Part shown: piece after piece, positions 200-12,447 of the stretch
Position numbering within the stretch: the first letter of the stretch is position 1
How the letters are laid out: each line of letters begins with the position of its first letter
UHGV virus genome: UHGV-1611333
Reading direction: 5' to 3' (one strand)
DNA length: 12,447 nucleotides
DNA from: a virus
Translations under genes and position numbers: made by a program
Notes under the pieces: generated by a model
Told to the model about the DNA's origin: nothing
Seen by the model: the letters and a program-made list of their open reading frames with translations, nothing else
The model's database searches: none

Positions 200-682
200 T
201 GCCTCATTAGTTGAGGTTGCTGCGTCTCCGACTGGTAACAGAGCTGTATTGCGTGGTTCGCCAGCAGGCCAGCGATAGCCAGACACTCTTGATGTTGGGA
301 ATGCGCGAATATTAACAGCATCCCCCTGGTTCCCACCCAAGACAAGCAGATCGCCATTGGCGCGGCGTCCGACAACAAAGCCTACATGCCCACCGCCTGC
401 GCGAGTAAATACAACGATACATCCGTATGCCGGTGTATCTAATTTCTCGCCCCAATCCAGATAGGATTTTGCCGACTCAAATCTTGTTGAGCGGATACCT
501 ACACGTTCCAGCATTGCACCAACAAATGCAGCGCACCACGGCGTTTCATCGTCTTTTATTCCGCCGCGCTTAATATCCCGCCAGAACTGGACGATCTCAG
601 GATTGTGTTTCGCTCCTTTTATTTCGGTGACACCAATATTTTTACGGGCTTCAATAAGCCAGCGAGGTTCATTATTGATCAT
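197..682 (-). CDS. Putative peptidoglycan hydrolase, CHAP/NlpC-P60-like (TIGR02594-like) protein
   Basis: 163-codon ORF on the minus strand. It has a conserved Cys context (ETPWCAAFVGAML) and a downstream His context (GGGHVGFVVG), typical of CHAP-type cysteine peptidase folds in phage and conjugative-element proteins. The GGAG Shine-Dalgarno is only 1 nt from the first ATG (686-688) but 7 nt from the second ATG, so the start is probably 682. Confidence 0.7.
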   Translation of the reverse strand: MINNEPRWLIEARKNIGVTEIKGAKHNPEIVQFWRDIKRGGIKDDETPWCAAFVGAMLERVGIRSTRFESAKSYLDWGEKLDTPAYGCIVVFTRAGGGHVGFVVGRRANGDLLVLGGNQGDAVNIRAFPTSRVSGYRWPAGEPRNTALLPVGDAATSTNEA

Positions 683-688
683 AATCAT

Positions 689-875
689 GCTCCGAATAAA
701 AAAAGAGCAATAACTATGTTGAGAATGTGATTTCTATTACACCAAACATTATTAAACGGCATTCATCTTTAACTTTATTCAATGTATTATCTAACAGAAA
801 AGTTAAACTGCGCTAAGTTAGTGATAACATTGGTCATTGTTAGCTTGCGTTATCTATTTGAGTAAAGAGATTGTC
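689..875. promoter_or_regulatory. AT-rich divergent intergenic region, presumed to carry promoters for both flanking genes
   Basis: 187 bp AT-rich spacer between divergently oriented genes. It contains several GTTAG/CTAAC elements (about 792-797, 818-822, 839-843). No single -35/-10 pair could be assigned with confidence. Confidence 0.3.
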
Positions 876-1373
876 ATGAAAAAAGCAATATTAGCGACTA
901 TTGTTTGTGCATTTGCATTATCAGGATGTGCTCCGGTTCAGACATACAACAAGCCTCAGCAAGTAAAACAGTTTGTTAAACGCCCAGCATTCCCTGTAGA
1001 GGAATATCAGGCATTGCCGAAAAAAGGTACAGGTAAGGTTAAGGGGGAGTTATTTGGAGTAACTCGCGGAGGGGATGTGAAGATTGGTGCTGGCTCCAAT
1101 ATCATACTGCGTCCGTATACTTCATATATCAAAAATACCCCCAAAATTGATTACGACACTCAGACCTTAGAAATAATCGACGGCAGGGTTGCGGAATATG
1201 ACAGAACTGTCCTGACAGATGCTCAAGGCAAATTTGAGTTCGAAAACGTACCACCAGGCCAGTATGAAGTGATTGGTTCGTTCAGTTGGTATGCTGGAAA
1301 TTTCCCGCAAATCGTTCTTCTGAAAAAAATCATTACCGTTAAGAACGGTGATGTTATCCAGGTTCAACCATGA
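876..1373 (+). CDS. Lipoprotein with a probable beta-sandwich (carboxypeptidase-regulatory-like) domain
   Basis: N-terminus MKKAILATIVCAFALSGC has a signal peptide and lipobox L-S-G-C. AAAGAG lies 6 nt upstream of ATG 876. The C-terminal motif GKFEFENVPPGQYEV resembles carboxypeptidase-regulatory/transthyretin-like folds. The ORF track start at 837 lacks an RBS and would place hydrophobic residues before the signal peptide. Confidence 0.8.
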   Translation: MKKAILATIVCAFALSGCAPVQTYNKPQQVKQFVKRPAFPVEEYQALPKKGTGKVKGELFGVTRGGDVKIGAGSNIILRPYTSYIKNTPKIDYDTQTLEIIDGRVAEYDRTVLTDAQGKFEFENVPPGQYEVIGSFSWYAGNFPQIVLLKKIITVKNGDVIQVQP

Positions 1374-1436
1374 TCCCCTTTTGAGTAAGAATCTTCGGGG
1401 TGTGATTCTGCGAAATTAACACACTCCATACCCTCT

Positions 1437-7400: not shown

Positions 7401-8321
7401 TTCCGCAAACCGTCCGGAGAAGGTCTGGAATCATTCTGGAGGACCGTGCTGGCATACCGTTTATTCCAGGGCAGGATGAAAGCCTTTAGCAATATCGATG
7501 ATATTGAACGGATGTTTAATCAGGTCAAGATAGCGAAAATTAAGACGAAGATCGAAAAAACACGTTCTGCGCTGGTGGCCTGGCGCGATGCATTGTTTGA
7601 GCAATATAAATCACTCAGTGATGCAGATGGATGGGCGGCACTGGAACAGTTGGCGAATAATGGGGTAGATGGAGCGAAACTCGCCATTGTCCAGGCTGAT
7701 AACCCCCTGGAATCACCGGCAGCACAGTGGATTAAGGTGGGGGCTGTCATCAATGCATTTGATGAAAAACACATTAGTAAGGACGATTTTGCTGATGCTG
7801 TTTCTGTTAATCGCCTGGTAGAAATGGCTACCCGCCGCGCCCGTGAGTTGAAAGACGGTGACTATGTGAATGAGTTGCCGGATGCGCTCAAATCAGCAAC
7901 GTGGCAAGACTATGTATCGCTGAAAAACGGCGGGGCCACCGAATCAGAGATCGCGGAAAGGCTTGAACAGGCTGAAAGCAAAAGAGAAGAGCAGGCGGCA
8001 GTGGCTGAAGCCAGAGCTGATGAAGCGGCGAATGATGACTATATCATTGTGGTTAATGATAAGCCGATTCGCGCTAAGGCGCGTGTTCGCGGGCGCTGGT
8101 GGAGCGTCAGCGAGGACGTCGGTGCGGTTTATCTCATTGCCGACCAACCTGGTTCCTCGACAATACGGAACGCCAAAGACGCGATTAAGAAGATTGGCGG
8201 GCGTTTCTGGAATTTTGAAGCAAACCCGGTTGCTGATGTGAACTTTGACCGTCCGGCATGGATGGTATCTACGCGTTACTCGGTAGATGAACTGCGTAAA
8301 ATAATCGCCGATGCGGCCTAA
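1485..8321 (+). CDS. Giant fused N6-adenine DNA methyltransferase / SF2 helicase protein (phage P1 DarB-like antirestriction architecture)
   Basis: 6.8-kb uninterrupted ORF. Methyltransferase motif I VLEPSAGTGIF (about nt 1848-1874) and motif IV GNVPFG (2031-2048). Helicase Walker A GFGTGLGKTT (about 4011-4040), DEGH box (4605-4619), LTATPL motif III and motif VI QRNGRGARVG (6015-6044). The C-terminal ~700 aa are coiled-coil-rich with no recognised motifs. The ORF is open from TTG 1470, but TTG 1485 has a GAGGGGG Shine-Dalgarno 6 nt upstream and is the more likely start. Confidence 0.9.
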   Translation: MDKIIDSISQATSIGALIEIVSRLHKPRAVVTFGVKKVDGVSIQKTRRAANNAAVDLLNSLPPGFDGAKLTDEQRQILAGYTGEGGLTDGEGSQYEYYTPQFMAEGIWDLFGDYGIDGGHVLEPSAGTGIFQETKRQGMIMTSAELSPISGRINQLLHPEDDVNIGAFEALAAKDAMYDHAVGNVPFGEGRSGVAGLDPAYANEKNVGNYFVLRTIDKVKPGGLIVLVVPNGMTDGTKYKKLRDKVSRKAEFLGAHRMPSGTFSESGTDTVVDVWVLRKHPETFLEMIPDTDDATLKSANVLWDTFLKGKWFTTEGKRFVYGDMERTSFRNTLVVKKDGRVSNESMKTALSRRFESRINWDLLGVTTQAWQGAKVGDKRLVGGIWHEFDGLKWVKDTTTKSSALDVSRYGVSTFGDLQIAFQSTNGILALSWDQISAIASDYPSVVSDEVAAMIRFAGKQREKDRERVMRGALIGQLINKALDLRNLGVNVDDKLADASRLAAAEVAKYGPPHAIKLNGLAEAGAKNWMTFTGNVKQDGSTSDLLAGRLDVTDGAAGIDFTRPEQVIAHLFSDVALNPITLGDFREAFAGELPEDDDAALEYLAKFDDIAIDGYGCLLPMDRATSGDIATKTALLMGWRDASTGEQKSNFERQLAKIEEKRIFTPLNKVTVNLNARWLDRRLIKEFLAEQGYDEFKYTEPDLKIVDGILVSPDDYEGKDGVFTGYQLRTVNGKNGNEFKKANNKDGFLNQLENYLNGVKPRGQNANEYLDKIAQLEVSFNDWLRTHPQADQIAREYNDAFNGFIPFTHSNAPLGLEGISGKRIPLTYQNEEVRRLSEDGRGIMGFGTGLGKTTTALALEAYNFETGRTKRTCIVVPKAVYQNWYHEAQSFYSADAFANMMFIGLDEVRDEDGNILTAPVLDENGEPRLDSNGQPLTRNVVKESASAVIVQRMNMIPSSNWRTIIMTKEQFASIPLREKTIEENSQQAVFNAVEMGRLDLASGKHRDAQKKNKIKDQAANTGTTKKQNIPYFEDMNFDSVIADEGHNYRNSFNAGREAGQLAYLPNPAVSKMARDMAVKAAYMMKRNNGRGVVMLTATPLVNSPIDAFNMLSTVIPQEEWMRMGIITPDDFVRVFGKTATVQVQKISGEVEEKQGLVGFQNLDGLRGIFHRWTTLKTAADVGATVKIPDIVENTLQIPMTGEQEAAYEELRKRAQELSSKDALTVDENGHITNEKPDDFIFSIIRDMDKVAIDPDLYASAITFQFPVELADKVKAIADALPKVAGGKVADDADEAEEDGAGGLVSTRTSKVVKTTFSEHPAHVEIRASIELEAEILRAIAAAGIDLQQVSHPIPPKYAALIENLREGLKNGKQIVFIDEKAQHQKLRRIIASALQMPEQEIGIINATTVSQAGGIKLKKVNKPTEPTPNKNGEYKEGAWETYYSKLAQYEDYLSAKNDAGLEGMEGIAADYNEGRTRIIICNKKAEVGINLHIGTTDIHHLTLPWTPASIDQRNGRGARVGSPQEKVNVHYYCGKGTFDDFRLDTLKRKKDWIKMVMTSDMSEIANGDADDADERAIMLAANPEERRAIMARQAQEREERLKLKAQREANNALDIYLKAANAAGKDIGMMETELKSAMEQIEYYQRNLDDLIKAGTNRNGQKYALEQLSSYRKRARVLRFAITRAKDADTIMKRSRGDVERAIKSGVLDISIDVIQNPQEYMRTDKNILLHKGSYYRAVIDDRETTAIVRVEKIDGEKAQYLCRIAWLDRASRYARAPGSIVTLPFDSVIEAVTFEEGVAESRATAARGVQCHQLSTILTRDQFYDAIRNGVMNVIAGKSGNAWGGGSAIKYWAYRTDDGQIALSSAYDGVIGQKIGRASDIAPERWIYPDGNDEALKREVAKIQASDNPLNIVDGEGFLQALYGYDYIQGMQAWGAQATMDDVAQEFENWMAGRGLSGRSLNKVTSEDILSLFRKPSGEGLESFWRTVLAYRLFQGRMKAFSNIDDIERMFNQVKIAKIKTKIEKTRSALVAWRDALFEQYKSLSDADGWAALEQLANNGVDGAKLAIVQADNPLESPAAQWIKVGAVINAFDEKHISKDDFADAVSVNRLVEMATRRARELKDGDYVNELPDALKSATWQDYVSLKNGGATESEIAERLEQAESKREEQAAVAEARADEAANDDYIIVVNDKPIRAKARVRGRWWSVSEDVGAVYLIADQPGSSTIRNAKDAIKKIGGRFWNFEANPVADVNFDRPAWMVSTRYSVDELRKIIADAA

Positions 8322-8357
8322 CAGATAGGGAGCGGCCCCATCCGGGGCCGAATTTGA

Positions 8358-8792
8358 ATGACGACATTAATTGACACTGTAAAACCGACGGAATCCTACC
8401 TTGAGGATATTTTGCCGCAGGCGCTCAATGGCAGGAGTGAAGAGGCGTTTCTGGATGCATATCTGGATGGTATGGTGGAAAGGCTGAAACGAGATCCACA
8501 GCTTTATCATCTTTATGGCCCGTGGTGGCCTGCGCTTAAAACGTTATTGCTGGAGCGCGGCGACATCTCATTTGGACAAGTTGTAGATAGTGATGTGGCA
8601 GAGATCTACAAAATGAGTCGCCCGGCGCTTACGGTTTTATCCGGGCATCTGTATTCGAGCGATCGCCTGGAAAATGACGCGGTATACAATCCCGTTCATG
8701 CTCTGGAAGTCGCGCCTTATGCTGATGATACAGAGCCATACGTGTACACAAGTTACGACGAGTCGATAGAGAAATATCGAATCATGGGGTAG
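8358..8792 (+). CDS. Hypothetical protein (144 aa)
   Basis: ORF starts 36 nt after the giant gene stop, in the same orientation. No recognisable motif. No obvious Shine-Dalgarno; a GC hairpin (8333-8350) sits between an upstream AGGGAG and the ATG. Confidence 0.55.
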   Translation: MTTLIDTVKPTESYLEDILPQALNGRSEEAFLDAYLDGMVERLKRDPQLYHLYGPWWPALKTLLLERGDISFGQVVDSDVAEIYKMSRPALTVLSGHLYSSDRLENDAVYNPVHALEVAPYADDTEPYVYTSYDESIEKYRIMG

Positions 8793-8794
8793 CT

Positions 8795-9055
8795 ATGCGA
8801 AAGAATCGTAGGTTTACGATCGACGACTTAAAAGCGTACTCACAAGGGAAGGGATACGCCCTTGAATACCACCGTTATAAGCGGGTATTTACCCTGCGGC
8901 ATATAAAAAACCCTTCGAAATGGGGATGGATTTATTTTCCGCACACTGACGATAAGCTGGTGGGCCTTGTTGATGATTTATCCTATGAAGGATGGATGAT
9001 CGCTATCGACAAGGCGGTTACAGAAATTAACGAACCGGATAAAATAAACCATTAA
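8795..9055 (+). CDS. Hypothetical protein (86 aa), translationally coupled to the upstream ORF
   Basis: ATG lies 2 nt after the stop of the 144-aa ORF (ATGGGGTAGCTATG), with GGGG serving as a Shine-Dalgarno. Basic N-terminus; no recognised domain. Confidence 0.5.
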   Translation: MRKNRRFTIDDLKAYSQGKGYALEYHRYKRVFTLRHIKNPSKWGWIYFPHTDDKLVGLVDDLSYEGWMIAIDKAVTEINEPDKINH

Positions 9056-9061
9056 AAATAA

Positions 9062-9097
9062 CAAGTTGGGTAAATGACATACAATTTACCCGGCTTG
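9062..9097. other. Strong hairpin after the 86-aa gene
   Basis: CAAGTTGGGTAAAT / ATTTACCCGGCTTG arms (about 14 bp with two G-U pairs) and an 8-nt loop. The flanking A/T tract lies upstream on the + strand, i.e. a U tract on the minus-strand transcript, so it could stop antisense transcription or stabilise the + strand 3' end. Confidence 0.4.
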
Positions 9098-9178
9098 TTG
9101 ACCCGCATCACCATTTACTCTAAAAACAAGTCCGACCTGTTGCATACGCCTATCTCTTTAGTAGTATCCCCCCTGATT

Positions 9179-9206
9179 TTGATAAAACTAACGCTCTTGT
9201 TATTAT
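9179..9206 (+). promoter_or_regulatory. Candidate sigma70 promoter for the VRR-NUC operon
   Basis: TTGATA (9179-9184), 16-nt spacer, TATTAT (9201-9206). A second weaker candidate is TTGACC (9098-9103), 17-nt spacer, TAAAAA (9121-9126). Confidence 0.4.
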
Positions 9207-9230
9207 CGTAATCCTGATTTCAGGAAGTTT

Positions 9231-9240
9231 GTGTTAGAAA
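9231..9240 (+). promoter_or_regulatory. Copy 1 of the recurrent GTGTTAGAAA motif
   Basis: GTGTTAGAAA sits 4 nt upstream of ATG 9245 and about 25 nt downstream of the candidate -10, i.e. an operator-like position in the 5' UTR. Confidence 0.4.
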
Positions 9241-9244
9241 TTTG

Positions 9245-9688
9245 ATGCGAAGACGCAGGCATCATAGTGCGTATTCTGAAATATCCCCGCACGCTGCTGC
9301 ACTAAGAGAGTTAGAAAGAAATCCTGACTTACTAAAAAGGAATTTCGAACATTACGAACAGGTTCGCGTTCTGGATTGGCTGTATCGCAACATGCGATAC
9401 GTGTATGAACACACACACTCAACACCGAACGGCGGCCTGAGAGGCAAAAGGACAGCCATTAAGATGGTGGCAGAAGGTCAGAAGAAGGGCTATCCGGACC
9501 TTTCTATTGACCTTGCTCGTGGTGGGTATCACGGAATGCGCATTGAGATGAAGCACGGGAGAAACCGTCTGACTCCCGAACAGCTTGTCTGGATGACCCG
9601 CCTCACGGAAGCAGGCTATTACTGCTTTGAGGCGCGCAGTGCCGATGAAGCCATAAAAGCTATCACGGAATATGTAAATCTTGATTAA
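9245..9688 (+). CDS. VRR-NUC domain nuclease (PD-(D/E)xK superfamily)
   Basis: N-terminal EQVRVLDWL element and catalytic core GYPDLSIDLARGGYHGMRIEMKHG (PD ... E-x-K) encoded at about 9487-9555. The ORF track starts at TTG 9242; ATG 9245 is used here. Confidence 0.75.
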   Translation: MRRRRHHSAYSEISPHAAALRELERNPDLLKRNFEHYEQVRVLDWLYRNMRYVYEHTHSTPNGGLRGKRTAIKMVAEGQKKGYPDLSIDLARGGYHGMRIEMKHGRNRLTPEQLVWMTRLTEAGYYCFEARSADEAIKAITEYVNLD

Positions 9689-9702
9689 ACGGAGAAATCG
9701 TT

Positions 9703-9903
9703 TTGCGTTTACTTAACGTGGCTGAACTTATCCCTGCCGGTGCTAACGTTGTTGCTCGTCGCTGCTCATGGCCTCATTCTTTCTGTATAGAGCTTAAAAA
9801 GATGGATGATGGGGCATTAGAAGCCCGAAACATAGTTACCGGCGACAAGGTATGCATTACCCCGGAAAGCGCGAAAGCCAATGATTGGGAGTTTGTTCAT
9901 TGA
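9703..9903 (+). CDS. Hypothetical small protein (66 aa)
   Basis: TTG start with GGAG 8 nt upstream (9691-9694), 14 nt after the VRR-NUC stop. No recognised motif. Confidence 0.4.
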   Translation: MRLLNVAELIPAGANVVARRCSWPHSFCIELKKMDDGALEARNIVTGDKVCITPESAKANDWEFVH

Positions 9904-9965
9904 GCAGAAAACACCACGTAAATCTGACGTTTGCTGATGACGCCGGAAGAACCAGAAGCATAACC

Positions 9966-10211
9966 ATGAAAGTTGCTTCCAGGAAAGTAACCGCTCCACT
10001 TATACGAGAGGCCGTAAGTGAACTTGAGATGAGTGAGAATGCAGCTCTGTTATCGGTAAGCTGGCTGGGGAAAATGACGGATCAGGAATACTCGGATGGT
10101 ATACCCCACGGTGAGCGGCAGATAGTAAAGCGCGCGCTTAGAATTTCAGAGGTAGTTGTCGTACTGATAGCTTTGATTTATATGGCATACATGCTACTCC
10201 AACACGTCTAA
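9966..10211 (+). CDS. Small protein with a C-terminal transmembrane helix (tail-anchored), 81 aa from ATG 9966
   Basis: The ORF is open from TTG 9885, which would overlap the upstream gene by 19 nt. The first ATG is at 9966. The C-terminus EVVVVLIALIYMAYMLLQHV is a clear hydrophobic helix. A strong terminator follows the stop. Confidence 0.4.
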   Translation: MKVASRKVTAPLIREAVSELEMSENAALLSVSWLGKMTDQEYSDGIPHGERQIVKRALRISEVVVVLIALIYMAYMLLQHV

Positions 10212-10219
10212 ACGGTCAT

Positions 10220-10246
10220 AAACCCGCCAGTTGGCGGGTTTTTTGT
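10220..10246 (+). terminator. Rho-independent terminator of the VRR-NUC operon
   Basis: AAACCCGCC-AGTT-GGCGGGTTTTTTG: 6-7 bp GC stem, 4-nt loop, U tract, beginning 9 nt after the stop at 10209-10211. Confidence 0.8.
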
Positions 10247-10285
10247 TGCCTGAGTCTTTTTATTGAAATTGCATACTAATAAAAT

Positions 10286-10304
10286 GTGTTAGAAAACTAA
10301 TTTC
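10286..10304 (+). promoter_or_regulatory. Copy 2 of the recurrent motif (GTGTTAGAAAACTAATTTC)
   Basis: Located between the terminator and the RBS (AGGGAA 10310-10315) of the 402-aa gene, 17 nt before ATG 10321. A TTGAAA element at 10264-10269 is nearby. Confidence 0.45.
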
Positions 10305-10320
10305 AAAAAAGGGAACAAAC

Positions 10321-11529
10321 ATGAGTCAGCAAGTAGAATCATCAAGCCTGGAGATCATCTCAACCGCAATTGAAACGCTGCGGACACAAATCGCGCTTAT
10401 ACAGAAACGAAATCCGGGCGATGATCTGTCAAAGCGACTGCATGAGAGCGTCATTGCCACTACAGATAACCTGGTGGCGGAAATCAACCAGCTCCTTGAT
10501 GATGGGGCAGTTGATTACAATAAGCTGGTGGATCAGTTTGAGGAATATCAGCAAGCCGTTAATGATGGCTTGATCCGTTTTTCTCAAGTCACTGGTGTAT
10601 CTGCGACAGTTGAAAGCCTGGGGGATGCTGTTAATCAATTTGCCGCGAATATGCGTAATGAGATCGGCAATCTGGAGGCGCGTCTTGAGCAGGCAAATAC
10701 ATTGCGCAAATCTGCTGAAGTCGATTTGAGTCGTTACAAAAAAGACTATCCGCCAAGCCTGACAAAACGACTGGATGTTGCGGAGAAAGATAACCGCACT
10801 CTGAAAAGAGAGCGTCGGGAACTAAAAGAGCGCTTAACCAAGCTAAATCAGCAATGCGTTGAGTATCAAGGCGAACTCGTCACACTGCGTAAAAAGTTAG
10901 CAGCGGCGCAGAGCATTATTGAAACATTGAAACGAGAGTGCTCAGAGCTTGGTAATGATCTGAATCGCGCCTGTGGCATGGGGCAAAGGCCAGAGACATT
11001 CCCGCTAATGTATGACGGAAGAGAAGCTATTGCCTATATCCATGAGTTTCCGCATGGTCTGGTCGCGGAGACTGGGCAACGTGGCGAAGCGTTGCTGACG
11101 GCAAATTACCATCAGCAAATCAGAACCAGCCGCCTGCTGACGATGGATGTGATCCCGTCAGTATGGGGAACGCCGCTTTACTACCGAATTCCTGGCTTCG
11201 AAACTGACTGGAATACCGACATAGACGAATGTCTGGCAGATAAAATTATGGCGTACCTTGAAACGGATTTTCCACGCTTGCATCGCCGGATTATGGACTC
11301 TAAGGATGCACCGATCGACGAATTGAAAATGCGTCCAGAGACGTTGGAGGCAATCAAGCAGACTGAGTTTGATACGGTGTTCAGTGTGGCCTGCATTCCA
11401 AGCAGCTTTCATGAAAGCATTCCGTTCATGCAGGGCGATCGACGTCAGGAAATAATTGATGCTTGCCGGGTATGGGCGAACGAGTGGGATAAGAAGAACG
11501 GTGGAGTTGAAAATCTTTACGGGAAATAA
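10321..11529 (+). CDS. Hypothetical coiled-coil protein (402 aa) with a C-terminal globular domain
   Basis: Long ORF with an RBS. Residues about 1-220 are heptad-rich and charged (e.g. LKRERRELKERLTKLNQQCVEYQGELVTLRKKLAAAQSIIETLKRE). The C-terminal ~180 aa are non-repetitive. No catalytic motif recognised. Confidence 0.85.
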   Translation: MSQQVESSSLEIISTAIETLRTQIALIQKRNPGDDLSKRLHESVIATTDNLVAEINQLLDDGAVDYNKLVDQFEEYQQAVNDGLIRFSQVTGVSATVESLGDAVNQFAANMRNEIGNLEARLEQANTLRKSAEVDLSRYKKDYPPSLTKRLDVAEKDNRTLKRERRELKERLTKLNQQCVEYQGELVTLRKKLAAAQSIIETLKRECSELGNDLNRACGMGQRPETFPLMYDGREAIAYIHEFPHGLVAETGQRGEALLTANYHQQIRTSRLLTMDVIPSVWGTPLYYRIPGFETDWNTDIDECLADKIMAYLETDFPRLHRRIMDSKDAPIDELKMRPETLEAIKQTEFDTVFSVACIPSSFHESIPFMQGDRRQEIIDACRVWANEWDKKNGGVENLYGK

Positions 11530-11530
11530 T

Positions 11531-11562
11531 GTGTTAGAAAACTAAAATTATCTTTCTAACAT
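11531..11562. promoter_or_regulatory. Copy 3 of the motif, arranged as an inverted repeat (TGTTAGAAA-N12-TTTCTAACA)
   Basis: GTGTTAGAAAACTAAAATTATC at 11531-11552 begins 2 nt after the 402-aa stop. Its 9-bp reverse complement TTTCTAACA lies at 11553-11561, giving a palindromic operator-like site or an AU-rich hairpin. Confidence 0.45.
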
Positions 11563-11598
11563 GTTGATTATGGAATTAACTTAACATAGAATTTTTCG

Positions 11599-11667
11599 TG
11601 CTGGTGGGGAGCTTCCCATGTCGCTTGCGGGTTTGATAGTCACTTCATTGTCTTCTCCCCACCAGCA
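11599..11667. repeat. Perfect 12-bp inverted repeat (TGCTGGTGGGGA / TCCCCACCAGCA) with a 45-nt spacer
   Basis: Arms at 11599-11610 and 11656-11667. A 25-codon ORF (ATG 11618, GGGGAG upstream) starts inside the loop. No flanking U tract, so not a classic terminator. Confidence 0.4.
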
Positions 11668-11681
11668 TCAAACAAATTTAA

Positions 11682-11700
11682 GTGTTAGAAAGTAAATTTA
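11682..11700 (+). promoter_or_regulatory. Copy 4 of the recurrent motif (GTGTTAGAAAGTAAATTTA)
   Basis: Same 10-nt core followed by a TAAATT element, at the entrance to the structured non-coding region. Confidence 0.4.
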
Positions 11701-11903
11701 AGGGTAAGGGAAAGCTCCGGCACCGTGCAAATACATGCCCGGCAGGTTTAGTGCGTAAAGTGGTTTCAGCGAGAGCATTTTACGGAGTAAACGACAGTGA
11801 CTTGAGCCACGGAAGGTCTTTTTAAGGTGTTCATTGATGATGATCTGGCAGTGAGTATGTTAAGTGGGCCAGGCTGCATCGGGTCATCATCAGTGCACAT
11901 CCT

Positions 11904-11971
11904 CAACGTTAAGGAGGCGCAGAGTTGGGTTTTCCTCTTATTTTGCTGACTCTGAGTCTCCTTAACGTTGC
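11904..11971. repeat. Long imperfect inverted repeat / RNA hairpin that sequesters a strong Shine-Dalgarno
   Basis: Left arm CAACGTTAAGGAG GCGCAGAG (11904-11924) pairs with CTCTGAGT CTCCTTAACGTTG (about 11951-11971): 13 perfect bp plus about 6 more with 2 mismatches. AAGGAGG at 11911-11917 is inside the left arm. Confidence 0.5.
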
Positions 11972-12104
11972 GGTAATGCACCTATGCGGATGTGGCCTTG
12001 CATTGTGTTTTGAAAGAATGGGGCAAGGCCGGGGATATCCCCAGGGGGAGGCACCCCCGCTGCAACGAACAGCCATAGACGGCAGTCGAGTGATGAAAAC
12101 GTGA
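11925..12104 (+). CDS. Candidate small hydrophobic peptide (59 aa, TTG start); speculative
   Basis: TTG 11925 lies 7 nt after AAGGAGG. It translates to MGFPLILLTLSLLNVAVMHLCGCGLALCFERMGQGRGYPQGEAPPLQRTAIDGSRVMKT, stop at 12102-12104. The hydrophobic N-terminal half is encoded across the hairpin. It is below the ORF-track size cutoff and may be a structured RNA rather than coding. Confidence 0.2.
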   Translation: MGFPLILLTLSLLNVAVMHLCGCGLALCFERMGQGRGYPQGEAPPLQRTAIDGSRVMKT

Positions 12105-12192
12105 AAAGACTTTAAACCTCGTTACGGCTGGCGTGGCAAACGCGACAACCGGGATAGGACGGTGACGGGCGGAGAGAGAGCCGCTTCAAGAT

Positions 12193-12259
12193 AAAAGCCG
12201 ACTATGGATTCCTTTCTGCGGGCCTTTGAAAGTGAATCTTGCTCAGGCAGTCGGCTTTT
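12193..12259. repeat. 11-bp perfect inverted repeat (AAAAGCCGACT / AGTCGGCTTTT) with a 45-nt spacer
   Basis: Arms at 12193-12203 and 12249-12259, followed by TTTTATGTTG. Either a large-loop hairpin within a structured RNA or a weak terminator. Confidence 0.4.
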
Positions 12260-12391
12260 ATGTTGATACGTAGCGATAACCGCGACAGGCGCGGCGGCAA
12301 GTATGGCGGGGTAGTGACTCCTTCCCCCTCATGACGCCGAGTTGCCAGGTTGACCATACGCCTAAGTGGCAATACCGCGAGTGGGATATTT

Positions 12392-12417
12392 GCCCATCTT
12401 CGGGTGGGCGTTTTTTT
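12392..12417 (+). terminator. Textbook intrinsic terminator with a UUCG tetraloop
   Basis: GCCCATC-TTCG-GGTGGGC (7-bp stem including one G-U pair, C(UUCG)G tetraloop) followed by GTTTTTTT at 12410-12417. A possible ATG of a downstream gene follows at 12431. Confidence 0.8.
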
Positions 12418-12447
12418 CAGGGTTTTCGTCATGGTTAGCGACTTTGC

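Follow-up and report, generated by a model that had tools for sequence, protein, structure and literature searches.

The closest described relatives of the locus considered here lie in two phages and in a group of small nucleases. In phage P1 (AF234172), C1 operators and sigma-70 promoters precede the pmgL/pmgM and pmgR units of the lytic-cycle region pmgL-pmgM...pmgR-pmgS. In-frame deletion of P1 pmgR yields no infectious particles, leaving unjoined tails and incomplete heads, and the defect is rescued in trans (PMC9024508). In Escherichia phage D6 (MF356679), the corresponding genes are labelled 'similar to P1 pmgM' (orf12), 'hypothetical' (orf11), and 'similar to P1 pmgR' (orf10), with a further gene labelled 'similar to P1 pmgS, putative scaffold'. 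The VRR-Nuc nucleases are defined by an E-PD-ExK motif and a family-specific Gln that contacts the Lys (PMC4103454). One of these, psNUC, is a dimer that binds four-way junctions with sub-nM affinity and cleaves them symmetrically, and for the VRR-Nuc proteins of phages a part in recombination, replication, or packaging has been proposed, comparable to that of lambda Rap, T7 endonuclease I, and T4 endonuclease VII (Pennell et al., 2014; PMC4103454). Here, a three-gene locus at positions 9179-10246 of the virus genome UHGV-1611333 is compared with these systems; the window refers throughout to the whole stretch of 12 447 nucleotides (nt) that was analysed.

The first-pass annotation had presented this locus as a nuclease cassette with two small partner open reading frames (ORFs), in a layout seen in defence, anti-defence, and toxin-immunity modules. 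By homology and gene order, it corresponds in the D6 lineage to the pmgM...pmgR lytic-cycle region of P1, a gene set that has already been annotated in phage D6 and of which this is a further member. The reading favoured here, with moderate confidence, is a repressor-controlled lytic-cycle unit made up of a resolvase-type nuclease, a lineage-specific small protein, and a membrane-tailed homologue of PmgR.

The D6-type gene block and its counterparts

Region 9000-10400 of the window has 99.4% identity to the E. coli plasmid pEC361_3 and 98% identity to several further non-mobilizable plasmids of ~90 kb; phage D6 is 79% identical over the first two-thirds of the region. The gene order of the D6 GenBank record matches that of the window: a peptidoglycan hydrolase gene (minus strand), darB, a ulx-like gene, orf13, a pmgM-like gene, orf11, a pmgR-like gene, and a pmgS-like gene. 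Beyond the pmgS-like gene, D6 has tRNAs, lpa, pacA, and pacB, and pEC361_3 additionally encodes repL, icd, a Rha-type regulator, and a phage repressor. Based on the D6-like gene order and the near-identity to plasmids, the window is therefore assigned to a D6-like (P1-related) phage-plasmid of E. coli. The features of the unit are as follows.

9179-9206, + strand: sigma-70-like promoter, TTGATA-16 nt-TATTAT with an extended -10 TG, matching 10 of 12 consensus positions
9230-9246, no strand assigned: putative C1-repressor-type operator (motif copy 1), ~24 nt downstream of the -10 hexamer, assigned by motif enrichment and position
9245-9688, + strand: VRR-NUC nuclease (ORF1), P1 PmgM orthologue, 147 amino acids (aa) from ATG 9245, or 148 aa from the alternative TTG 9242
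9703-9903, + strand: lineage-specific small protein (ORF2; phrog_7206), 66 aa from a TTG start, a beta-barrel in the AlphaFold (AF2) model
9900-10211, + strand: PmgR homologue (ORF3; phrog_9115/phrog_3177), 103 aa from TTG 9900
10143-10199, + strand: C-terminal hydrophobic helix of the PmgR homologue, predicted to be transmembrane from Kyte-Doolittle values and a helix in the AF2 model
10220-10246, + strand: intrinsic terminator, AAACCCGCC-AGTT-GGCGGGTTT followed by a T-run
10285-10301, no strand assigned: second operator copy, outside the cassette and 20 nt upstream of the pmgS-like gene

The D6 genes orf12-orf11-orf10 have the same gene order and the same promoter, operator, and terminator positions, and the block is also present in ~118 D6-like phage-plasmids of E. 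coli, Salmonella, and Shigella. The nucleases of D6 and the window share 92% identity, the ORF2 proteins 71%, and the ORF3 proteins 53%; the window differs in its ORF3 allele and in a 23-nt segment after the -10 hexamer that has been replaced. In P1, PmgM, PmgR, and PmgS are homologous to the window proteins, but pmgN, pmgO, pmgP, ppp, and pmgQ lie between pmgM and pmgR, there is no homologue of ORF2, PmgR is 72 aa without the hydrophobic tail, and PmgM is longer at the N-terminus and has a C-terminal extension. The pmgM...pmgR region of P1 is also not next to darB, whereas the anti-restriction genes darB and ulx adjoin the unit in the window.

All three ORFs are real genes, as supported by the ratio of non-synonymous to synonymous substitution (dN/dS) for the nuclease and ORF2 and by invariant columns for ORF3. 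The first encodes a VRR-NUC nuclease, as had been recognized from the sequence. The Pfam match (PF08774, E=9.6e-6, residues 71-133) exceeds the cut-off by a narrow margin (26.1 bits against 23.8). Stronger matches are found to phrog_2363, the PmgM family (E=1.3e-48), with others to phrog_5702 ('Holliday junction resolvase') and phrog_824. P1 PmgM itself matches phrog_2363 (2e-131) and has 56% identity to the window protein over residues 13-147 (tblastn). On this similarity, ORF1 is the orthologue of P1 PmgM.

The closest solved relative is psNUC (PDB 4QBL, E=1e-16), with the blocks PNGG, GYPDL, YHGxRIExK, and TPxQ being kept. When the window protein was aligned with P1 PmgM, the D6 protein, those of two distant metagenomic loci and Achromobacter phage ART, and psNUC, residues D85, E101, K103, and Q113 (numbered from ATG 9245) were invariant in all seven sequences and E35 was conserved in all six that cover its column. 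The alignment shows a complete E-PD-ExK-Q site (E35, P84-D85, E101-x-K103, Q113), with the catalytic PD-(D/E)xK residues retained. The nuclease resembles psNUC, stNUC, and saNUC (4QBL, 4QBO, and 4QBN), which are stand-alone Holliday-junction resolvases of the VRR-Nuc family from bacteria or phages, in its single-domain size, E-PD-ExK motif and Gln, and psNUC-type linker between beta1 and beta2 (PNGG...GYPDL). This linker is shorter than that of psNUC, with which it aligns, and the FAN1-type helical insertion between these strands is absent from the 147-aa single domain. The window protein differs from psNUC in a basic N-terminal tail of ~35 residues and a helix, SPHAxAL..NPDL, that stand outside the aligned part (match from query residue 39). 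The basic tail and the SPHAxAL..NPDL stretch are common to P1 and the window, therefore the 147-aa form is taken to be the real one. Against diverged loci, dN/dS is 0.03-0.09, indicating very strong purifying selection. In Achromobacter phage ART, the nuclease homologue comes after a primase-helicase gene. These alignments allow PmgM of the P1 and D6 phages to be named as a VRR-NUC nuclease of the resolvase type, with its active site intact.

Public records start this gene at other positions. RefSeq/PGAP records annotate only a 75-aa fragment, from Met75 (window 9464-9688; pEC361_3 10463-10687), which is without the catalytic Glu35, and in the GenBank entry of D6 the start is placed at a TTG (D6 9193) within the predicted promoter.

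The two smaller ORFs had been thought to be without a recognizable family, which does not hold for either of them: ORF2 belongs to phrog_7206, albeit a family with no assigned function, and ORF3 belongs to the PmgR family. The most likely start of ORF3 is TTG 9900, which has GGGAG 7 nt upstream, overlaps the ORF2 stop codon as ATTGA, and is the start expected from the PHROG profile; TTG 9885 is less likely. ORF3 matches phrog_9115 (6e-50) and phrog_3177 (6.9e-10), the latter being matched by P1 PmgR at 4e-47, and has 29% identity to P1 PmgR over 62 aa (BLASTP, E=1e-7). The homology spans the first ~64 residues. There are 26 invariant columns among 14 homologues, with synonymous sites being saturated.

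All members of the D6-type PmgR group add ~35 residues ending in a hydrophobic helix, which is the tail that P1 PmgR lacks. In residues 82-100 of ORF3, the Kyte-Doolittle mean over 19 residues is 2.42, in keeping with the transmembrane helix that had been predicted at the C-terminus of the third protein; the value is ≥1.75 in most homologues. The hydrophobicity is kept in 12 of 13 homologues while the sequence is variable. The AF2 model (predicted local distance difference test score, pLDDT, 85) has a beta-beta-alpha-beta domain (~90), after which residues 71-102 form a long helix. By sequence comparison, ORF3 is homologous to PmgR but has an extra hydrophobic helix at its C-terminus. It lies upstream of the pmgS-like gene, as in P1, with the terminator, the second operator, and 109 bp between them. 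In the 2026 cryo-electron microscopy study of the P1 virion, Prt, PmgC, and gp7 are named in the connector and PmgR is unmentioned (PMC12810830). Due to its absence from the resolved virion proteins, PmgR looks like a non-virion assembly or packaging factor.

That same absence, together with the conserved tail-anchor helix, could be taken to mean that ORF3 is mainly a membrane protein, acting in lysis timing, superinfection exclusion, or a similar envelope role, and that it shares only an N-terminal domain with PmgR. ORF3 is also fast-evolving, and its alleles are swapped apart from its neighbours, which is typical of host-interaction genes; the window-type and D6-type proteins have 53-58% identity, whereas the flanks are nearly the same (nuclease 92%, PmgS 94%). 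This explanation is nevertheless improbable. It is the N-terminal 64 residues that are strongly conserved and homologous to PmgR, the loss of PmgR in P1 is a morphogenesis defect that can be rescued in trans, the gene has retained its position directly upstream of pmgS, and there is no likeness in PHROGs or Pfam to holins, spanins, or known exclusion proteins.

ORF2 has a GGAG Shine-Dalgarno sequence 8 nt before its TTG start, and its dN/dS against diverged loci (0.15-0.46) indicates purifying selection. The AF2 model is a small beta-barrel (pLDDT 84). A word-indexed search of 5.8 billion proteins found five ORF2 clusters, and an exhaustive profile search of 1.84 billion representatives added six more true relatives, of 33-44% identity and all 66-76 aa. 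Judged from these searches, the family is restricted to D6-like elements. Three of the distant relatives have retrieved contigs, and in each the context is the same: DarB, Ulx, orf13, VRR-NUC, ORF2, and then a PmgR-like gene. A PmgS-like gene follows in two of the three and is missing in the other (L041). There were no matches to ORF2 in Pfam, even at E<=10, in NCBIfam, or in PADLOC. Homology to P1 PmgN was considered and rejected, since the two are in different PHROG families and have no tblastn match.

The one Pfam family matched by more than one member of the ORF2 family is PF11195 (DUF2829), the family of Tad2-like proteins, although the matches, from 2 of 10 members, are weak (E=0.15). 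A narrow ORF2 profile also aligned with the PF11195 protein of the plasmid itself (hhalign, E=1.5e-4, probability 51%) through a shared ARRxSWP motif, and by eye the N-terminal (A..l..G..vaRR.sW) and C-terminal (a.DWe.v) patterns are like those of SptTad2. ORF2 could on these grounds be a minimal, highly diverged Tad2-like protein, working as an anti-defence sponge or inhibitor soon after induction or infection, independently of the nuclease. This is doubtful: the window ORF2 has no Pfam match of its own, a broader ORF2 profile reduces the hhalign probability to 7-8% over just 16-21 columns, a profile search against PDB sequences found no Tad2, Foldseek found nothing, and the central insertion of Tad2 proteins is absent. 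The weak and inconsistent sequence matches do not support a Tad2-like assignment. Similarly speculative is a reading of ORF2 as a new, minimal barrel with an anti-defence or regulatory function, which could be a degenerate Tad2-like signal sponge or could act as a modulator, linking the nuclease with a packaging or head-completion factor that is anchored in the membrane. If true, the trio would be a functional module and more than an inherited gene order.

Elsewhere on the element, outside the window, a genuine Tad2-like domain (PF11195, E=4e-10) is found in a protein of 191 aa encoded at pEC361_3 15637-16209. The NCBI name for this protein of D6-like plasmids is 'MW1434 family type I TA system toxin'; its gene is a candidate for an anti-Thoeris function.

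Promoter, operator, and transcription of the unit

The boundaries given in the first-pass annotation were borne out, with a promoter, a copy of the motif, three ORFs, and a terminator all present. The three tightly packed ORFs lie between promoter and terminator and are a candidate compact transcription unit on a mobile element. The terminator is strong; its hairpin (10220-10241) has a 9-bp stem with six GC pairs and a T-run tail, and an equivalent terminator is at the same position in D6. The promoter is the best sigma-70 match within 8300-11700. It is a candidate and not a statistical finding, because promoter-like sites are no more frequent in this interval (5) than expected from shuffles (5.2). 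Conservation, rather than statistics, backs this candidate. D6 keeps it at the same place as TTTACA-16-TATTAT, and identity over the promoter segment is 82% among D6-like loci, while the next 23 nt are completely replaced between the two types.

Motif copy 1 is one of four copies of TGTGTTAGAAA, counted with one mismatch allowed, in the window, where 0.23 would be expected; these are at 9230, 10285, 11530, and 11681, all intergenic, and there is an inverted copy at 11551. In pEC361_3 (21 kb) there are eight copies against 0.35 expected, including one ~80 nt upstream of the lpa-like gene and one 20 nt upstream of the repressor (c1-like) gene. According to the GenBank feature tables, on which all comparisons with P1 operators and promoters are based, the C1 operators Olpa and Oc1 of P1 occupy these same places, and P1 also has operators at the pmgL/pmgM and pmgR promoters. 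At PpmgR, the operator is ~20 nt downstream of the -10 hexamer, a position as in the window. The reverse complement of the motif, TTAGTTTTCTAACACATT, shares a TCTAA core and ~11 of 17 positions with the P1 operator ATTGCTCTAATAAATTT in our own alignment. The motif therefore has the features of P1-type operators, being an asymmetric sequence of ~17 bp, like ATTGCTCTAATAAATTT, that is repeated at immunity, lpa, and early lytic promoters. The D6-type repressor is a distant homologue of C1, with 21% identity over 241 aa (pairwise E=1e-7). From its position and similarity, motif copy 1 is interpreted as the D6-group version of the P1 C1-repressor operator.

As a C1-type operator is placed at the promoter, repression is inferred in the plasmid-prophage state, whereas a defence system carried by a prophage would be expected to behave in the opposite way. 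The lysogen probably does not express the unit, which would be turned on during lytic growth.

It is possible, although rather unlikely, that the three genes are instead the distal part of a longer, late, Lpa-dependent darB-ulx-orf13 transcript and that the predicted promoter is fortuitous. From darB through to ORF3, the genes have the same orientation and short gaps, and the hairpin trailing orf13 has no T-run on the + strand and so would not stop transcription on that strand. In addition to the chance-level number of promoter-like sites, the sole canonical in-frame start of the nuclease in D6-type sequences falls inside the predicted promoter, therefore transcription may also, or instead, come from upstream. 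However, the promoter hexamers and TG extension have been kept while the adjacent 23 nt were swapped, and the operator copy is directly behind the promoter, as at P1 PpmgR. In the window, the 23-nt replacement closes the longer D6-type frame: an in-frame TAA at 9209 forces the nuclease start to 9242/9245, downstream of the promoter. Transcription from the promoter at 9179-9206 remains the preferred interpretation.

A P1-type late promoter (-22 TGACT and a -10 hexamer, as in LP26 and LPpac) was sought in the spacer at 9056-9200, but only AAATGACAT...TACCCG was found, with the wrong spacing. The hairpin in this spacer (9059-9100) has a perfect-looking 17-bp stem and comes right after the orf13 stop codon; the 201-nt spacer containing it has a folding z of -5.1, and the arms are largely kept in D6-like loci. 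With its T-run on the minus strand only, it reads as a terminator of antisense transcription, not of the darB-ulx-orf13 transcript. Comparison of 8700-12447 to known RNA families gave a best E no lower than 0.48, and a search for tRNAs gave none.

The ~950 bp after pmgS (11530-12447) contain no ORF of more than 76 aa, yet their conservation among D6-like loci is 82-98%. Three operator-like copies (11530 +, 11551 -, and 11681 +) and three sizeable inverted repeats (11594-11672, 11888-11986, and 12186-12266) are located here, with neither an Rfam match nor a tRNA in this segment. A possible role for it is in the immunity circuit, as a regulatory region or a source of non-coding RNA.

Co-occurrence of the genes and the defence hypothesis

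Conservation of the small ORFs alongside the nuclease had been suggested as a check on the cassette, and this is true within the D6 lineage. The ulx-orf13-VRR-NUC-ORF2-ORF3-pmgS block is intact in every locus that is long enough, even where ORF2 is at 37% and PmgS at 47% identity. In each of the D6-like loci examined, all three genes are present together, even at an ORF2 identity of 33%, and ORF2 always comes directly after the nuclease gene. Because the block includes genes that no one would call partners, such conservation is what vertical inheritance of a phage segment predicts. Outside the lineage the link dissolves, as seen in P1 itself. In PLSDB, 764 plasmids have a relative of the nuclease, 118 have ORF2, and 127 have this type of ORF3; in ~640 P1-like plasmids, the nuclease is encoded but ORF2 is not. 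The nuclease is also present in 352 of 50 697 phage records, in which this ORF3 type is limited to the two of D6.

Identities to the window for the nuclease, ORF2, and ORF3 are 99%, 100%, and 56% in one locus (L004) and 99%, 73%, and 53% in two others (L005 and L009). Some plasmids have the window-type nuclease and ORF2 with a D6-type ORF3. When the window is compared with D6, L004, and L005, the PmgR-like gene and the spacer following it (window 9900-10320) are a recombination hot spot. The rate of synonymous substitution (dS) against D6 is likewise uneven, with values of 1.5 (nuclease), 0.54 (pmgS), and 0.15 (ulx). In pEC361_3, ORF2 and ORF3 are missing from the PLSDB gene table.

These data bear on the layout that had been proposed, in which a module for defence, abortive infection, or toxin immunity would have the VRR-NUC protein as its toxic effector and at least one of the two small proteins, of which one is membrane-anchored, as sensor, immunity protein, or antitoxin. 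There is precedent for VRR-Nuc domains as toxins that are checked by adjacent immunity proteins in TseV/TsiV, the one VRR-Nuc toxin system that has been described, a type VI secretion system toxin-immunity pair whose hallmarks are a PAAR-like domain and immunity proteins with DUF3396 (PMC9635880). As here, the gene for the catalytic domain in that system is beside small or medium accessory genes. The co-conservation of the trio in D6-like loci and the adjacent anti-restriction genes, darB and ulx, would also fit. The nuclease has no PAAR-like or trafficking domain, however, VRR_NUC being the sole Pfam family found in it, ORF2 and ORF3 have no DUF3396 in Pfam, with only noise even at E<=10, and there is no type VI secretion context. 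Against PADLOC-DB 2.0, the nuclease, ORF2, ORF3, and orf13 have no match at E<=1, and PmgS gave coiled-coil noise only.

The defence hypothesis is further contradicted by the relationships and the alleles of the genes. The nuclease falls in the psNUC/PmgM resolvase clade and ORF3 is homologous to a morphogenetic factor. The ~640 P1-like plasmids are joined by ~350 phage records in having the nuclease without ORF2 or this ORF3 type, and the alleles of the three genes reassort, which is not expected of cognate pairs of toxin and immunity protein or of sensor and effector. From the operator, the unit would be repressed in the lysogen, and in P1 the deletion of pmgM does not change anti-restriction or plaquing (PMC9024508). 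A toxic effector with cognate partners is therefore very improbable, and the unit is most probably not a defence or toxin-immunity module.

Further upstream, ~740 bp of the window (672-1411) are missing from pEC361_3 and D6, which have ~90 bp there. The segment contains an ORF (837-1373, +) for a 178-aa protein with a lipoprotein-like N-terminus; the Cor superinfection-exclusion family is matched by its first 25 aa only, and there is a match to phrog_14789, with sub-threshold matches to prealbumin and CarboxypepD_reg-like families. From its sequence and position, the segment looks like a moron between the peptidoglycan hydrolase gene and darB.

Proposed role in the lytic cycle

For the lytic-cycle unit, the following sequence of events can be proposed. 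In the plasmid-prophage state, a C1-type repressor would hold the unit off, and upon loss of the repressor a transcript would run from near 9213 to 10241. The nuclease, presumably a homodimer by analogy with psNUC, may then cut Holliday junctions or other branches in recombining or replicating concatemers, so that headful packaging is unblocked. Such a packaging-clearing role would be comparable to that of T4 endonuclease VII, T7 endonuclease I, or lambda Rap. ORF2 and the PmgR homologue would be translated as a coupled pair, with ORF2 as an accessory that is likelier to be tied to PmgR than to the nuclease. The PmgR homologue would be, as in P1, a non-virion assembly factor for filled, tail-competent heads, and in the D6 lineage it may be tethered to the inner membrane by its tail.

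A number of observations weigh against this model. The pmgM gene of P1 is dispensable for plaques, with anti-restriction unchanged, when deleted in-frame (PMC9024508), and knock-down by CRISPR interference gave an efficiency of plating of 0.38 (PMC10695390). Any debranching role is therefore redundant or conditional; dispensability in the laboratory might be explained by overlap with host RuvC, RusA, or other phage functions. The resolvase-type activity of PmgM and of the window protein is predicted from their homologues, and the operator is likewise a putative one, assigned from position and similarity. The ribosome-binding site before ATG 9245 is poor. Promoter-like sites are at the level of the shuffles, and given the conflict between frame and promoter in D6-type sequences, read-through from darB-ulx-orf13 is possible. 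A head-completion factor would not be expected to have a membrane anchor. What stays curious about the unit is that its PmgR homologue has a membrane tail and that ORF2 is an orphan.

For this family of phage-plasmids, a suspected defence or toxin cassette is reclassified as routine lytic-cycle genes of a well-known group, and the direct impact of this is small. It does give PmgM a name, as a predicted resolvase-type nuclease, and flags the 75-aa RefSeq fragment that lacks the catalytic Glu. The D6-group variant of the C1 operator could be used for mapping the D6 immunity regulon. Likewise, the predicted anchor of the D6-type PmgR is a cheap, testable clue to the site of the still unexplained PmgR step in P1-type head completion.

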